From: Octopus vulgaris
Lineage: Eukaryota
Direction: 5' to 3'
Length of the DNA stretch: 64,000 nucleotides
NCBI GenBank assembly: GCA_951406725.2
Contig: OX597836.1
Coordinates: 25,482,001-25,546,000, forward strand
The notes under the pieces are model-generated. The model was not told where the DNA came from and made no database searches. It saw only the letters and a program-made list of their open reading frames with translations. The translations under genes were made by a program, and so were the position numbers. Positions 5,431 through 54,985 of this stretch are shown piece after piece; positions within the stretch are counted from its first letter, which is position 1; each line of letters begins with the position of its first letter.

Positions 5431-5761
5431 TTATGGGGGGGGGGGGGGTGCAGAAATATAGGGGAGCACCAGTGGGAGGGGTGGTTCAGAGGACAGGTTC
5501 TAGGCAAGTAGAACGTAGGATATCGAGAGAGGGGTTATGCATGGTGAAATAGCGTATTGAAGAGGGGGTTCAAAGAGTAGACACCTATAATGGTGGTGGT
5601 GGGGGTGCAGAAATATAGGGGAGCACCAGCGGGAGGGGTGGTTCAGAGGACAGGTTCTAGGCAAGTAGAACGTAGGATATCGAGAGAGGGGTAATGCATG
5701 GTGAAATAGGGTATTCATATATATATACATATATAAATATATATATATACATATATATATA

Positions 5762-6126: not shown

Positions 6127-6172
<46 letters not shown>

Positions 6173-6323
6173 TGACGTATATTTGCCATCTCAATATGGC
6201 TACCCCTAAGGGTGGATGCTACTGTAGTTTTTAGCCCCAGGAGGACACACTCCTCCAGCTGGCCATAGACACACTTTCTGTGTCCTGTCAGTATTTGCAA
6301 AGGGAAGTCATCCTTCCCGTCTT

Positions 6324-6393
6324 CAACTTATGATACACACGGACTCGAGTTTCGAGGTATTGACCTCTCGTCAGCGTGTGACAATCATAGTTG
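6324..6393 (-). ncRNA. Type I hammerhead ribozyme, copy 1
   Basis: Minus strand reads caactatgat-tgt-CACACG CUGACGA GAGG-ucaaua-CCUC GAAA CUCGAG UC^ CGUGUG-u-atcataagttg: complete core, stems I and II paired, palindromic minimal stem III, GUC cleavage triplet. Confidence 0.88.
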
Positions 6394-6675
6394 TCGGCAA
6401 GAATTAGATTTCCTTCACAAATACTTATACTTTTTCCAGCGTCCACTGTCGCTGATATTGAAAAAGTGAAATCAAACAATGATAAATATCAAAGTGAGTT
6501 ATATACAGTAGCGGTAACACATCGTGACGTATATTTGCCATCTCAATATGGCTACCCCTAAGGGTGGATGCTACTGTAGTTTTTAGCCCCAGGAGGACAC
6601 ACTCCTCCAGCTGGCCATAGACACACTTTCTGTGTCCTGTCAGTATTTGCAAAGGGAAGTCATCCTTCCCGTCTT

Positions 6676-6745
6676 CAACTTATGATACACACGGACTTGA
6701 GTTTCGAGGTATTGACCTCTCGTCAGCGTGTGACAATCATAGTTG
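6676..6745 (-). ncRNA. Type I hammerhead ribozyme, copy 2
   Basis: Same as copy 1, offset by exactly 352 bp; stem III region CUCAAG (one substitution). Confidence 0.82.
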
Positions 6746-6876
6746 TCGGCGAGAATTAGATTTCCTTCACAAATACTTATACTTTTTCCAGCGTCCACTG
6801 TCGCTGATATTGAAAAAGTGAAATCAAACAATGATAAATATCAAAGTGAGTTATATATATATATATATGTATATAT

Positions 6877-6940
<64 letters not shown>

Positions 6941-7297
6941 TTATATGTATATATATTATATATATATGTATATATGTATATATATCATGTGATCACGTGA
7001 CCGACCAGACTATCAGATGTTGCTACACATCGCTGGTCACAATGCGTTCGCATTGTTCTAGCCTTCGAATGATGCCACCCCGCTGGCTAAGCAAGCAGGC
7101 CAACAGCAGAAAGAGTGAGAGAAAGAGTGGTGAAAGAGTACAGCAGGGATCACCACCACCACCCTGCCGGAGCCTCGTGGAGCTTTTAGGTGTTTTCGCT
7201 CAATAAACACTCACAACACCCGGTCTGAGAATTGAAACCGCGATCCTACGACCGCGAGTCTGCTGCCCTAACCACTGGGCCATTGCACCTCCACATG

Positions 7298-7373
<76 letters not shown>

Positions 7374-11576: not shown

Positions 11577-12144
11577 CTATGACCATCCGAAAGAATAACA
11601 ATATATATGTGTGCGTGTGTGTATGTGTGTATATATTTCTGTATGAATGCTTATTTATTTGTATATATTTATCTGTATATTTATTTGTTAACTTATTTTG
11701 TACCCTACTGTTTTTTTGTATTTATATGTTTTACTACTCAATGTGGTGTCGTAACAGGCAATGACAATGCAGTCATCCATTACATCTGACTATTTGTTGA
11801 TCTCCCACTGATGAAAGAGATTCTAAACATAACTTCACTTTCCATTTCATAGTTTTCCACTTTTTGAGCCTTTTAAACAAAATATGAGCATGTCTTAGTC
11901 GCTAGGGTGTTGCACCCATGGCAGTAAGATCATAGTTTCACACATTGACTTGTGTTGGTTGAACTGAGTAGAATGTTGGAGAAGGACACTTAGCTGTTTC
12001 TTGTAAGACCAATACAAACATCTAAATTAATATTTTTGTTAGGGACTCTTAGAATATTATTGTGGACCTCCAATTTACTGTTTTGTTATTTGGAACCCCT
12101 AAAAATCTTACATGACTCCTCAGGGACCATATGTGTCCTGGTTG

Positions 12145-15100
12145 AGAACCACTGATATATGGCACGTGTTTGTTATATATATATATATATATATATATAT
12201 AACAAACATATACATATGAGAACCACTGATATATGGCACGTGTTTGTTATATATATATATATATATATATAACAAACATATACATATGAGAACCACTGAT
12301 ATATGGCACGTGTTTGTTATATATATATATATATATATAAACAAACATATACATATGAGAACCACTGATATATGGCACGTGTTTGTTATATATATATATA
12401 TATATATATACAAACATATACATATGAGAACCACTGATATATGGCACGTGTTTGTTATATATATATATATATATATATACAAACATATACATATGAGAAC
12501 CACTGATATATGGCACGTGTTTGTTATATATATATATATATATATATAACAAACATATACATATGAGAACCACTGATATATGGCACGTGTTTGTTATATA
12601 TATATATATATATATATAACAAACATATACATATGAGAACCACTGATATATGGCACGTGTTTGTTATATATATATATATATATAACAAACACATACATAT
12701 GAGAACCACTGATATATGGCACGTGTTTGTTATATATATATATATATATATATAACAAACATATACATATGAGAACCACTGATATATGGCATGTGTTTGT
12801 TATATATATATATATATATATAACAAACATATACATATGAGAACCACTGATATATGGCACGTGTTTGTTATATATATATATATATATATAAACAAACATA
12901 TACATATGAGAAGCACTGATATATGGCACGTGTTTGTTATATATATATATATATATATATATATAACAAACACATACATATGAGAACCACTGATATATGG
13001 CACGTGTTTGTTATATATATATATATATATATAACAAACATATACATATGAGAACCACTGATATATGGCATGTGTTTGTTATATATATATATATATATAT
13101 ATAACAAACATATACATATGAGAACCACTGATATATGGCATGTGTTTGTTATATATATATATATATATATATAACAAACATATACATATGAGAACCACTG
13201 ATATATGGCATGTGTTTGTTATATATATATATATATATATATAACAAACATATACATATGAGAACCACTGATATATGGCATGTGTTTGTTATATATATAT
13301 ATATATATATATAACAAACATATACATATGAGAACCACTGATATATGGCACGTGTTTGTTATATATATATATATATATATATATATAACAAACACATACA
13401 TATGAGAACCACTGATATATGGCATGTGTTTGTTATATATATATATATATATATATACAAACATATACATATGAGAACCACTGATATATGGCATGTGTTT
13501 GTTATATATATATATATATATATATAACAAACATATACATATGAGAACCACTGATATATGGCATGTGTTTGTTATATATATATATATATATATATAACAA
13601 ACATATACATATGAGAACCACTGATATATGGCACGTGTTTGTTATATATATATATATATATATATACAAACATATACATATGAGAACCACTGATATATGG
13701 CACGTGTTTGTTATATATATATATATATATATAACAAACATATACATATGAGAACCACTGATATATGGCATGTGTTTGTTATATATATATATATATATAT
13801 ATAACAAACATATACATATGAGAACCACTGATATATGGCACGTGTTTGTTATATATATATATATATATATAACAAACACATACATATGAGAACCACTGAT
13901 ATATGGCACGTGTTTGTTATATATATATATATATATATAACAAACATATACATATGAGAACCACTGATATATGGCATGTGTTTGTTATATATATATATAT
14001 ATATATATAACAAACATATACATATGAGAACCACTGATATATGGCATGTGTTTGTTATATATATATATATATATATATAACAAACATATACATATGAGAA
14101 CCACTGATATATGGCACGTGTTTGTTATATATATATATATATATATAACAAACATATACATATGAGAACCACTGATATATGGCACGTGTTTGTTATATAT
14201 ATATATATATATATATAAACAAACATATACATATGAGAACCACTGATATATGGCACGTGTTTGTTATATATATATATATATATATATATAACAAACATAT
14301 ACATATGAGAACCACTGATATATGGCATGTGTTTGTTATATATATATATATATATATATATAACAAACATATACATATGAGAACCACTGATATATGGCAT
14401 GTGTTTGTTATATATATATATATATATATATAACAAACATATACATATGAGAACCACTGATATATGGCACGTGTTTGTTATATATATATATATATATATA
14501 TAACAAACATATACATATGAGAACCACTGATATATGGCATGTGTTTGTTATATATATATATATATATATATAAACAAACATATACATATGAGAACCACTG
14601 ATATATGGCACGTGTTTGTTATATATATATATATATATATAACAAACACATACATATGAGAACCACTGATATATGGCACGTGTTTGTTATATATATATAT
14701 ATATATATAACAAACATATACATATGAGAACCACTGATATATGGCACGTGTTTGTTATATATATATATATATATATAACAAACACATACATATGAGAACC
14801 ACTGATATATGGCACGTGTTTGTTATATATATATATATATATATATAACAAACATATACATATGAGAACCACTGATATATGGCATGTGTTTGTTATATAT
14901 ATATATATATATATAACAAACATATACATATGAGAACCACTGATATATGGCATGTGTTTGTTATATATATATATATATATATAACAAACATATACATATG
15001 AGAACCACTGATATATGGCACGTGTTTGTTATATATATATATATATATATAACAAACACATACATATGAGAACCACTGATATATGGCACGTGTTTGTTAT

Positions 15101-15167
15101 ATATATATATATATATATATAACAAACATATACATATGAGAACCACTGATATATGGCATGTGTTTGT

Positions 15168-15198
<31 letters not shown>

Positions 15199-17010
15199 AT
15201 ATACATATGAGAACCACTGATATATGGCATGTGTTTGTTATATATATATATATATATATAACAAACATATACATATGAGAACCACTGATATATGGCACGT
15301 GTTTGTTATATATATATATATATATATAACAAACACATACATATGAGAACCACTGATATATGGCACGTGTTTGTTATATATATATATATATATATAACAA
15401 ACATATACATATGAGAACCACTGATATATGGCATGTGTTTGTTATATATATATATATATATATAACAAACATATACATATGAGAACCACTGATATATGGC
15501 ATGTGTTTGTTATATATATATATATATATATAACAAACATATACATATGAGAACCACTGATATATGGCATGTGTTTGTTATATATATATATATATATATA
15601 ACAAACATATACATATGAGAACCACTGATATATGGCATGTGTTTGTTATATATATATATATATATATATACAAACATATACATATGAGAACCACTGATAT
15701 ATGGCATGTGTTTGTTATATATATATATATATATATATAACAAACATATACATATGAGAACCACTGATATATGGCACGTGTTTGTTATATATATATATAT
15801 ATATATATAACAAACATATACATATGAGAACCACTGATATATGGCATGTGTTTGTTATATATATATATATATATATATAACAAACATATACATATGAGAA
15901 CCACTGATATATGGCACGTGTTTGTTATATATATATATATATATATAACAAACACATACATATGAGAACCACTGATATATGGCACGTGTTTGTTATATAT
16001 ATATATATATATATAACAAACATATACATATGAGAACCACTGATATATGGCACGTGTTTGTTATATATATATATATATATATATATAACAAACATATACA
16101 TATGAGAACCACTGATATATGGCACGTGTTTGTTATATATATATATATATATATAACAAACACATACATATGAGAACCACTGATATATGGCACGTGTTTG
16201 TTATATATATATATATATATAACAAACATATACATATGAGAACCACTGATATATGGCATGTGTTTGTTATATATATATATATATATATAACAAACATATA
16301 CATATGAGAACCACTGATATATGGCATGTGTTTGTTATATATATATATATATATATAACAAACATATACATATGAGAACCACTGATATATGGCACGTGTT
16401 TGTTATATATATATATATATATATAACAAACACATACATATGAGAACCACTGATATATGGCACGTGTTTGTTATATATATATATATATATATAACAAACA
16501 TATACATATGAGAACCACTGATATATGGCATGTGTTTGTTATATATATATATATATATATAACAAACATATACATATGAGAACCACTGATATATGGCATG
16601 TGTTTGTTATATATATATATATATATATAACAAACATATACATATGAGAACCACTGATATATGGCACGTGTTTGTTATATATATATATATATATATAACA
16701 AACACATACATATGAGAACCACTGATATATGGCACGTGTTTGTTATATATATATATATATATATAACAAACATATACATATGAGAACCACTGATATATGG
16801 CATGTGTTTGTTATATATATATATATATATATATAACAAACATATACATATGAGAACCACTGATATATGGCATGTGTTTGTTATATATATATATATATAT
16901 ATAACAAACATATACATATGAGAACCACTGATATATGGCATGTGTTTGTTATATATATATATATATATATAAACAAACACGTGCCAAATATCAGTGGTTC
17001 TCATATGTAT
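12145..17010. repeat. Tandem satellite of ~70 units of about 66-74 bp: aacaaacatatacatatgagaaccactgatatatggcaYgtgtttgtt + (at)n, closed by an inverted copy
   Basis: Directly visible; the terminal segment aacaaacacgtgccaaatatcagtggttctcatatgtatg is the reverse complement of the unit. Confidence 0.97.
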
Positions 17011-26251: not shown

Positions 26252-26607
26252 TTTTCGCCTAGGAGTGGCACATGAATCGTGCTTTCTTCTTCTTTATTCA
26301 ACCACGAGCTTCCCCTAAGTCTTGGAAGAAATGTCATGCTCATGGCCGTAACACCCCATCACCACTTTCATTAAATATCGCACGAAAACGTAAATAACCA
26401 AGAATAATGAGATTATTAATAAATCTCTGAACGAGATATAAACAGTAACCGCTCGACAACGTAAAGTGTACTAGCCATCTGAATGTGGCTAGCCACTGGG
26501 GGTGGGGTATTACTGACGCTTTTAGCCCCAGGTGATCAACGTCACCAGCTGGCCTTAGACACAATTTCAGTGCCCTTGCGTTATTTGCAAAGGGAGGTCA
26601 TCCTCCC

Positions 26608-26688
26608 TCGAAAACCTAAGTGATACATACGGACTATAGTTTCAAGGTAATTGCCTCTCGTCAACGCACGGTAAACACCGGTTTTCGA
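26608..26688 (-). ncRNA. Diverged type I hammerhead in the last intron of the ANKDD1A-like gene, sense strand
   Basis: CGUGCG UUGACGA GAGGC-aauu-ACCUU GAAA CUAUAG UC^ CGUAUG, with distal pairing ucgaaaacc/gguuuucga; flank 26480-26607 is homologous to the 352-bp unit. Confidence 0.65.
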
Positions 26689-26698
26689 TATGAGATTA

Positions 26699-39767: not shown

Positions 39768-40270
39768 CTAGCAGTATCGCCCGGCGTTGCTCGGGTTTGT
39801 AAGGGAAATAACTATATAAGCATTTTTAGAGAGTTATAGCCAAAAATAGCAAAAAAATGCATTAAAAATGGAAAAAAAATGATGGTAAATTTTTTTTAAA
39901 ATCGTTGACTGATCGTAGACATTTTTAGAGAGTTACTTCCCTTATATAATAGCGAAAAAATGCATTAAAATGGAAAAAAAATGATGGTAAATTCTTTTAA
40001 AAATCGTAGACTCATCGTAGACATTTTTAGAGAGTTACTTCCCTTATATAATAGCGAAAAAATGCATTAAAATGGAAAAAAATGATGGTAAATTTAAAAA
40101 AAAATCGTAGACTCATCGTAGACGCGCGCTAATACCCAGAAGGGCTCGATATGAATCACGACTATAAGATATCCGGTTTTGGTTAAACTGCACCGCAAAA
40201 TGTGGGAGTAGTTAGGAATCTAAATCGAAGGGGACAGACACTCACACAACTACAGTTTTATATATATAGA
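39768..40270 (-). mobile_element. Complete non-autonomous Helitron (503 bp) with internal ~102-bp tandem repeats
   Basis: Minus strand starts TCTATATATATAAAA, ends cccgagcaacgccggg hairpin then CTAG, inserted between A and T; three internal copies of a catttttagagag...gatggtaaat unit. Confidence 0.85.
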
Positions 40271-53224: not shown

Positions 53225-54985
53225 AACAAATGAAGGAAGGGGGCTGATAAGTGTGGAAGACTGCATGCGTATCGACCACGAGAGCTTAATGAGATACGAA
53301 GCCTGAAGTAAGGAAACCTTGCTAATGATAGTTAGGGAACGAGGGAGTATTGAGAACAGAGAGAAAAGGAAAAATGAAGGAAAGAGTACGAAAAGGACTT
53401 GAAGAAGCATTACGCAAGAAGGGACAACACAATTCCATGTAGCCAGAACAGAAGCTGCTAGAAAACACAGGTGAGATTGGCTGAAGAAGGGAACACTGAA
53501 AAAATGAAACTGAGAGCACTATACTAGCAGCGCAAGACCAAGCTTTGGCCACGAATTGGAGGGTTAACTTTAGGGATGAGCAAGTGTCTTCGTCGCTGTG
53601 CCGCATCTGTAATAGAGTGGAAGAAACCTATTTCTTTATTACCCACAAGGGGCTAAACACAGATGGGACGAACAAGGACAGACATAGGTATTAAGTCGAT
53701 TACATCGACCCCAGTGCGTAACTGGTACTTAATTTATCGACCCCAAAAGGATAAAAGGCAAAGTCAACCTCGGCGGAATTTGAACTCACAACGTAACGGC
53801 AGCCGAAATACCGCTAAGCATTTCGCCCGACGTGCTAACGATTCTGCCAGCTCGCCGCCTTTAGTGGAAGAAACCATTTCCCATATTACGAACGAACGCC
53901 CTAGACTTGCCCCAAACCATTACAAGTTGTGGCGACGCGGATCAGGTAGCGAAACTGCTACATTGGAAACTGTGCGAAAAGTGGGGTTAAAGAGAAGCAA
54001 GACGCGATATGAGCACAAATCGCAAAGAGTCGAGCAGTTAGAGACTTGTAAAATCCTTTGGGGTTACTCAATCCAAACAGATCAGGTGCTAGAGTACAAG
54101 AAACCGGACGTAGTGGAGGCAAACTGGCAGAAAACGGCGGCGAACTGGCAGAAAAAGGCGGCGAACTGGCAGAAAAAGGCGGCGAACTGGCAGAAAAAGG
54201 CGGCGAACTGGTAGAAAACGGCGGCGAACTGGCAGAAAAAGGCGGCGAACTGGCAGAAAAAGGCGGCGAACTGGCAGAAAAAGGCGGCGAACTGGCAGAA
54301 AAAGGCGGCGAACTGGTAGAAAACAGCGGCGAACTGGCAGAAAAAGGCGGCGAACTGGCAGAAAAAGGCGGCGAACTGGCAGAAAAAGGCGGCGAACTGG
54401 CAGAAAAAGGCGGCGAACTGGTAGAAAAAGGCGGCGAACTGGCAGAAAAAGGCGGCGAACTGGCAGAAAAAGGCGGCGAACTGGCAGAAAAAGGCGGCGA
54501 ACTGGCAGAAACGTTAGCACGCCGGGCGAAATGCGTAGCCGTATTTCGTCTGCCGTTACGTTCTGAGTTCAAATTCCGCCGAGTTCGACTTTGCCTTTCA
54601 TCCTTTCGGGGGCGATAAATTAAGTACCAGTTACGCACTGTGGTCGATGTAATCGACTTGATCCCTTTGTCTGTCCTTGTTTGTCCCCTCTATGTTTAGC
54701 CCCTTGTGGGTAATAAAGAAATAAGACGTACCACATGTGCTATATAGTTGATGTTGCATGTCCCATTAACTCACGAATAGTCAAGAACGAAGACTAAAAA
54801 ATAGATAAATACAACCCTCTTAAGTACAAAATAGCCCGGCTACGGAAAGTGAAGGAGGTGAAGATAGTGCCAATTATTGCTGGGTCCTTGGGAACAGTAT
54901 GAGAAGGCATCAAGAGGAATATAAAGGAAATCGGAATAGAGTGCCCAATAGAACTGTTACAAAAGGCTGTATTGACTATAAAGTA
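53225..54985 (+). mobile_element. RLE-type non-LTR remnant interrupted by two SINE insertions
   Basis: CRIC...EETISHI, KILWGYSIQTDQVLEYKKPDVV, IVDVACP, KIDKY and KIVPIIAGSLGTV; duplication agtggaagaaacc flanks the first SINE. Confidence 0.72.
54121..54510 (+). repeat. 21-bp minisatellite (ggcggcgaactggcagaaaaa) x ~18, an amplified SINE B 5' end
   Basis: Directly visible; the last unit continues into a full SINE B. Confidence 0.95.

Follow-up and report, generated by a model that had tools for sequence, protein, structure and literature searches.

A young, protein-free retrozyme family in Octopus vulgaris, probably copied by a Penelope-like enzyme from mostly single-unit RNA into TA repeats

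What kind of element is a short non-coding tandem repeat that carries a hammerhead ribozyme in each unit, and which enzyme copies it from which RNA? The case we present lies in a 64,000-nt stretch of Octopus vulgaris DNA (contig OX597836.1, positions 25,482,001 to 25,546,000; the window). The original prediction, made from the letters of the window, assigned the repeat to the metazoan non-LTR retrozymes. These are described as non-coding tandem units of 170-400 nt with GC below 45%, of 350-390 bp in mussel (Cervera and de la Pena 2020, PMC7229834). Unit size, GC, type I hammerhead and dispersed copies all fit that architecture. Our reading, to which we give a probability of about 0.65, is that the element is a young protein-free retrozyme, copied by a Penelope-like element (PLE) of the Neptune/Nematis type from mostly single-unit, probably circular RNA, into (TA)n.

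TRF reports at 6169-6857, on the minus strand, a tandem of period 352 with about 1.96 copies and 99% match, flanked on both sides by (TA)n; a 352-bp tandem at this locus is what had been predicted. The two units differ at three positions only (6172/6524, 6346/6698 and 6399/6751), all of them CpG transitions by inspection. The unit has a GC content of 42.6% and contains no ORF and no frame longer than 84 aa, so that the non-coding claim stands with a longest stop-free run of 84 aa. In the monomer numbering used throughout, position 1 is the first base past the cut. Table 1 collects the features.

An Infernal search with Rfam models had been proposed as a check on the type I hammerhead. The Rfam search of the 64-kb window gives zero matches at or above the gathering score, and finds RF00163 (Hammerhead_1) in both units just under its gathering score of 34 bits, at 6336-6380(-) with 32.2 bits (E 3.3e-5) and at 6688-6732(-) with 29.3 bits (E 3e-4). 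The miRNA matches from the same search are artefacts of the TA repeats and were discarded. We obtain the same predicted cuts as the original prediction, 6694/6693 and 6342/6341, which are 352 nt apart; loop II is UCAAUA enclosed by GAGG/CCUC as it had described, and the side hairpins that it named are present. It also had an intact CUCGAG hammerhead in each unit, which is correct for the downstream ribozyme and incorrect for the upstream one, where stem III reads CUCAAG. We take CUCAAG for a decayed variant because stem III is CUCGAG in 96 of the 100 core matches among the matches listed. In folding predictions, the stem III duplex of the upstream (CUCAAG) ribozyme with an intact partner has -4.7 versus -10.7 kcal/mol. 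A plant LTR retrozyme, with type III hammerheads in LTRs and a 4-bp target duplication, was considered and rejected: here the hammerhead is of type I, there are no LTRs, and the duplications are of 10-15 nt.

The circular monomer has a predicted fold of -117 kcal/mol with a z of -7.1 (60 shuffles), and the opposite strand also reaches a z of -5.4. A single ribozyme is predicted to misfold its own core; in the dimer folding prediction, two intact ribozymes co-fold as a classical double hammerhead via ACUCGAGU, and a dimer mode is described for metazoan type I hammerhead motifs (PMC4209133). The 7-bp long-range helix (6576-6570 with 6512-6506) has 98.8% of its cells paired and one double change in the alignment of three families described below, and the PLE protein may dock on the region that it spans.

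Table 1. Features of the retrozyme locus and of a related copy in the window (window coordinates; cut sites, starts and RNA species are predictions).
Feature	Position	Strand	Remarks
Whole insertion	6169..6857	-	monomer positions 189-352, 1-352, 1-173; one orientation; A 3' end; 5'-truncated
A 352-nt monomer between two cut sites	6342..6693	-	predicted circular RNA unit; release and circularisation inferred
Downstream hammerhead (type I, extended stem I)	6324..6395	-	Rfam core 6336-6380; palindromic stem III ACUCGAGU; cut predicted at 6342/6341
Upstream hammerhead	6676..6747	-	Rfam core 6688-6732; decayed stem III, ACUCAAGU; cut predicted at 6694/6693
Conserved 7-bp long-range helix	6506..6576	-	6576-6570 with 6512-6506; encloses GCCA/UGGC hairpin and site A
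Candidate snRNA-type promoter element	6443..6464	-	ATCAG 6456-6452; second copy 6795-6816; predicted starts ~6395 and 6747
3' end A (monomer 169-173)	6169..6173	-	inferred first reverse-transcription start site; internal copy 6521-6525
Penelope-type 'tail', site A to 3' end B	6475..6520	-	B at monomer 216-219 = 6478-6475; lies inside this copy but at the terminus of others
(TA)n target tract, 3' end	6129..6170	.	TRF
(TA)n target tract, 5' end	6852..6985	.	overlaps the element's own TATATA (microhomology)
Sister family 2 copy	26411..26689	-	predicted transcription start to site B, crossing an intact hammerhead; ~11-nt target duplication, non-TA site

The window element is a young insertion, one of hundreds of near-identical dispersed copies. 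The unit (family 1) has at least 143 matches among the best 40 of 2594 candidate places in the 2.8-Gb genome, and in these the full-length matches are nearly all 97-100% identical. A 33-nt core has 448 exact genomic matches, compared with 0 for its reversed control; the genome-wide copy count suggested with the original prediction thus finds the core conserved. Substitutions relative to the family majority amount to 0.47%. Copies are dispersed across many chromosomes, range from monomers to multimers, and have no LTR structure. There are two sister families: family 2, of about 355 nt and 68-72% identical, was reached via a diverged piece, and family 3, of 358 nt, via a pattern search. At core position 3, both carry U in place of C. 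When 12 units from the three families are aligned, double changes occur in 19 of 62 predicted pairs; with three families, these represent few independent events. Stem III is self-complementary in all three (ACUCGAGU, ACUAUAGU and ACCUGGGU).

Copies were compared at 175 non-redundant loci (90 of family 1, 38 of family 2 and 47 of family 3), taken from those listed on C1-C3 among the 33-nt core matches plus further best-scoring loci. Since they were picked by intact core or best score, the proportions below are biased toward young, long copies. Dropped before counting were L064 (mirror duplicate of L062), L149-L150 (duplicates of L148), and overlapping fetches of one array. Variant counts leave out L101/L012 and low-identity segments, and 5'-end counts leave out reference loci.

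Insertions do not end at the cut site. They end about 170 or 216 nt downstream of it, at monomer positions 169-173 (site A) or 215-221 (site B), some 46 nt apart and at aligned places in the sister families. Half of the loci (88/175) are inverted, head-to-head, 20 of them with one undefined end. In the 68 inverted loci with two defined ends the combination is A+B in 68 cases, with 0 A+A and 0 B+B. Direct loci are A-ended (57/175) or B-ended (28/175), and 2/175 are of another type. The window copy belongs to the commonest single-orientation type, direct and A-ended, and is cut off at monomer position 189. (TA)n stands on one or both flanks of 83/90 loci of family 1, 24/38 of family 2 and 40/47 of family 3. 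Among 24 loci examined for target duplications, 8 of 10 inverted ones have duplications of 12-15 nt, mostly at non-TA sites, and 3 of 14 direct ones have a duplication of at least 9 nt; these lengths are measured with a few bases of overlap. The TA tract that holds the retrozyme in the window also holds a SINE-like element at 6985-7300 (-), which has a tRNA-like head by eye and ends in GGTCACGTGATCACATGA and then (TA)n; a similar one is found in L148.

The signature of PLEs consists of partial tandems, 5' copies in inverse orientation and a one-end tail (PMC8557442). In purified form, a PLE protein both cuts and extends the two strands, and two internal starts bound the tail, a twin arrangement that is called unique to PLEs (PMC11167929). 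The retrozyme loci match this signature in their two fixed 3' ends, one-end tail, 5' truncation, inverted 5' copies and AT-rich target. Like canonical EN+ PLEs (Neptune, Nematis, Poseidon), they combine 5' truncation, partial tandems and inverted 5' copies with a one-end tail, microsatellite or AT-rich targets and a hammerhead in the repeat (PMC8557442, PMC11167929). Unlike canonical PLEs, the octopus unit has no ORF, its tail is of 46 nt compared with 30-40 nt, its full-length head-to-tail units run up to five deep, and its hammerhead is canonical where theirs is minimal. The PLE protein in vitro shows no strand difference in start site (PMC11167929), whereas the octopus copies pair A with B in 68/68 inverted loci with two defined ends. 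This A+B rule bears on how PLEs build their own tails and inversions. Mobilisation by a Penelope-like reverse transcriptase, as originally proposed, is thus backed by the insertion scars, and also by the copies joined to PLE sequence reported below. We conclude that the retrozyme is very probably copied by a PLE-type enzyme.

As for the RNA that is copied, the 119 arms of family 1 cross the cut site 169 times and stop within -3..+4 of it twice, with 2.2 stops expected; one of these two stops is an alignment split. All unit junctions (98/98) are free of indels. This excludes a linear monomer produced by the cut as the template. Arms have a median length of 496 nt, and 31/119 are longer than two units. 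Haplotypes agree in 443/446 comparisons within arms and 358/362 between arms, compared with 67% between loci. Among the rare variants of 88 loci, 22 are fixed in all covering units, 4 are partial and 153 single; 13 of the 22 fixed ones appear on both arms and 15 span at least two tandem units. Private variants common to all units of a locus require a single-unit bottleneck, most simply a circle, and the monomer circle is probably the main template. The variants were also compared for scars of RNA editing: A>G changes make up 6/22 of the fixed and 9/153 of the single variants (P 0.005), with P 0.12 for A>G against T>C and nothing in family 3. None of the sequencing runs that contain the unit is recorded as RNA, and 14 are presumed to be. 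Contigs of 4 of these 14 cover both the unit and the 781-aa PLE ORF described below, and are uninformative on strand, ends and level; one contig of 383 nt (353+30) is as compatible with a circle as with a tandem. Contigs from runs X5, X7 and X10 extend into related retrozyme-like families, unmatched to families 1-3.

Transcription may start within the unit. The upstream regions of host U1/U2 genes have ATCAGT at -57 to -61 in common in the 14 loci used, and the best match to their profile falls in all three monomers on the same aligned ATCAG (window 6456-6452), with a score that is equalled by 169, 60 and 13 of 1000 shuffles for families 1, 2 and 3, and is thus weak for family 1. The start predicted from it is the 5' edge of stem I, about 54 nt ahead of the cut site. 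In a 5-nt window at this start 9/241 arms stop, compared with about 2.84 expected from the neighbouring 5-nt window (P 0.003; the family-1 cluster was noticed beforehand, and the choice of window is partly post hoc). The family-2 copy at 26411-26689, outside the 241 arms, has its 5' end at the same predicted-start base. We lean towards an internal promoter of the snRNA type. The start-site stops together with the family-2 copy indicate that uncut primary transcripts are probably copied too, and uncut linear RNA probably serves as a template next to the putative circle. At L091, one arm has the unit-specific pattern G,C,G,G and the other G,C; the same pattern on both arms needs a multimeric template there.

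These same observations can be read the other way around, with uncut linear RNA as the main template: the same PLE enzyme would copy primary transcripts and multimers from a few homogeneous master arrays, arrays would regrow by local duplication, and the hammerhead would be a passenger or cut rarely. [quoted passage not shown] PLE insertion in vitro is also independent of hammerhead cleavage (PMC11167929). We regard this as unlikely. A same-register shared pattern is found at 1 of 5 split sites, against the 15 variants fixed across at least two units. Truncation at the 5' end would shorten arrays in each round, yet about a quarter of the arms exceed two units, and three families have kept a self-complementary stem III.

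Candidate enzymes are encoded in the same genome. In a GIY-YIG search, for which 150 of 6136 candidates were scored, 16 matches lie within open frames of 781 aa. Family N1 (L116-L120) consists of two-ORF elements, 96.6-99.6% identical, with a reverse transcriptase (RT), a CX4CX2C linker and GIY-YIG at the C-terminus; its 781-aa ORF has Pfam RVT_1 and GIY-YIG. RT, a CX2-5CxxC linker plus a C-terminal GIY-YIG with CCHH define the Neptune/Nematis type (PMC8557442), and by these sequence features N1 is a PLE of that type, Neptune and Nematis being taken together here. The N1 elements are young and intact (for example L120:481-5272), have an upstream ORF of 479 aa without a clear Pfam family, and carry a UUGAUAA-core hammerhead variant missed by Rfam. 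A similar isolated motif, with a UUGAUAA core and a palindromic stem III, is found at L049:26, away from a PLE end.

Families N1, N2, N4 and N5 have TA targets and A and B ends of their own, separated by 35-40 nt. A pattern search finds in them hammerhead-like motifs with a palindromic stem III, which are U3-A8 variants; such variants can be active. Rfam gives zero hammerheads in 20 PLE loci among the matches listed (150 of 155). The two-armed loci of N4, as detected by script, are A+B in 7/7 cases, one with a damaged end. Between the unit and five types of PLE end (150 of 6136 GIY-YIG candidates scored) we find zero sequence similarity, and the retrozyme 3' end is common to no autonomous PLE among them. 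By eye, the N4 end resembled the retrozyme tail, but we rejected this likeness; it is out of register with the true ends and gives no alignment under E 0.1.

Five of the 175 loci join retrozyme to PLE sequence. In L198, a family-2 arm ending at B stands head-to-head with an N4 arm that runs from mid-ORF to A, with no TA at the joint. In L197, a family-1 arm is joined by a 2-nt microhomology to the interior of the N4 ORF, followed by an inverted N4 end that is 25 nt short. In L239, a single TA tract contains 87 nt of an N1 end, 98.9% identical to intact copies, placed head-to-head with a family-1 arm of 98-99% identity; the locus is A+A, with a short TATA at the joint. In L196, an N4 body is followed by a family-1 array, and the PLE part (93%) is apparently older than the retrozyme (99%). 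L151:3970-4430 is a finely interleaved mosaic of retrozyme and N5 PLE 3' UTR, which may reflect repeated template switching or an error of the assembly consensus. Of these, L198 alone obeys the A+B rule, and three or four PLE families are involved, not one. The composites support shared machinery without naming one partner, because later insertion beside a PLE followed by deletion is possible, and the count has no genome-wide null. L083, L088, L090 and L244 were rejected as composites; PLE pieces are nearby, with TA or flank between, and we count them as neighbours. The copying enzyme is likely a Neptune/Nematis-type PLE.

One could also take the unit for a terminal repeat (pLTR) belonging to an unfound autonomous PLE, and its copies as truncated or tandem ends of that element. 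Every insertion feature is one that PLE ends show, Xenopus retrozymes are related to pLTRs (bioRxiv 10.64898/2026.07.22.740005), and the GIY-YIG survey scored 150 of 6136 candidates. We consider it very improbable: units wrap onto themselves across the 175 loci, each PLE family inspected has its own unrelated end, and PLE ORF pieces adjoin 3 loci only, at odd internal joints. No RT or GIY-YIG ORF lies in the unit or in register upstream of it at the 175 loci. Copies standing as pLTRs beside a Penelope ORF had been named as evidence against free tandem units, and none of these loci has an ORF with the unit as its terminal repeat. An ordinary minisatellite, or a SINE driven by a LINE and locally duplicated after insertion, would account for the window copy taken alone, which is a plain direct dimer, and is hardly credible for the family, already contradicted as it is by the end counts (two fixed 3' ends, no poly(A) or fixed 5' end, A+B in 68/68) and by the private variants shared between inverted arms (13/22), as well as by dispersal over many chromosomes.

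For a PLE-copied retrozyme with a mostly single-unit template, the life cycle could run as follows. The internal snRNA-type promoter would start transcription about 54 nt ahead of the cut site. Adjacent hammerheads are predicted to pair via their palindromic stem III, cut and release monomers, which a host ligase would circularise, while part of the RNA would stay uncut. As the scars suggest, the PLE protein would make nicks 10-15 nt apart in the two strands of an AT-rich target and prime two cDNAs, one from site A and the other from site B, with 46 nt between these sites. Copying passes the cut site without preferred stops and ends at scattered points, as observed in the scars. Two cDNAs joined at their 5' ends give head-to-head A+B arrays, and a single surviving cDNA a direct copy, as in the window, where the three differences between the units are CpG transitions, one of them weakening the upstream stem III. 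More tentatively, we suggest that a Neptune-type protein, probably a dimer, starts two cDNAs at two fixed sites on one self-made circle, one per nicked strand, and copies it repeatedly, that the composites record both RNAs in one event, and that the unit's own snRNA-type promoter lies just before the ribozyme. If true, this would be a complete and testable life cycle of an animal retrozyme, with the enzyme intact in the same genome.

The retrozyme class and the proposed PLE and rolling-circle route are already published, and the octopus family is not a new class. Like the retrozymes of PMC7229834, it is a non-coding tandem of low GC with one canonical type I hammerhead per unit and long target duplications. 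In that paper, rolling copying is proposed for a circle, and PLEs are put forward as a strong candidate partner. Cleavage and circles are demonstrated there and predicted here for the octopus unit; fixed ends, tail and composites are described here for the octopus family, and the main text of PMC7229834 has no mention of 'octopus', 'cephalopod' or 'inverted'. Li, Clavereau and Pollet (2026, bioRxiv 10.64898/2026.07.22.740005) describe animal retrozymes as non-autonomous, PLE-dependent sequences, based on co-occurrence and pLTR similarity in 35 genomes, with no mollusc; 1 of 9 predicted Xenopus retrozyme dimers cleaved. We arrive at the same claim of PLE dependence, from scar evidence in the octopus case and with no pLTR similarity to PLEs found. 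Non-autonomous Chlamys elements such as MRC1 are likewise PLE dependants with multicopy head-to-tail insertions; as a rule, their 3' end is similar to that of the autonomous partner, whereas the octopus unit resembles no partner found (PMC8557442). The main text of the octopus repeat annotation (PMC13282606) does not contain 'ribozyme' or 'Neptune'. We found no account in the literature of cephalopod retrozymes or of retrozyme tail and inversion scars; supplements and repeat databases may list the family. The additions made here are the PLE composites and the evidence for a mixed circular and linear template. PLE copying of animal retrozymes round a circle is proposed, not demonstrated, in PMC7229834 and in the 2026 preprint, and this family offers a direct test, with a young RNA, two mapped starts, the A+B rule, a 10-15 nt stagger and intact candidate enzymes.

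A few other features were noticed. A region triplicated on C15 contains, at L148:2200-2470 (also in L149 and L150), a short inverted element that lies in TA and bears a hammerhead-like motif with a CUGAUGA core. The window also holds a 157-bp spaced direct repeat (5433-5715), a 102-bp repeat of 2.7 copies (39845-40123), a 21-bp repeat of 18.8 copies (54118-54511), and at 12143-16979 a 68-bp minisatellite of about 70 copies with 96% matches and a TA run inside each copy.
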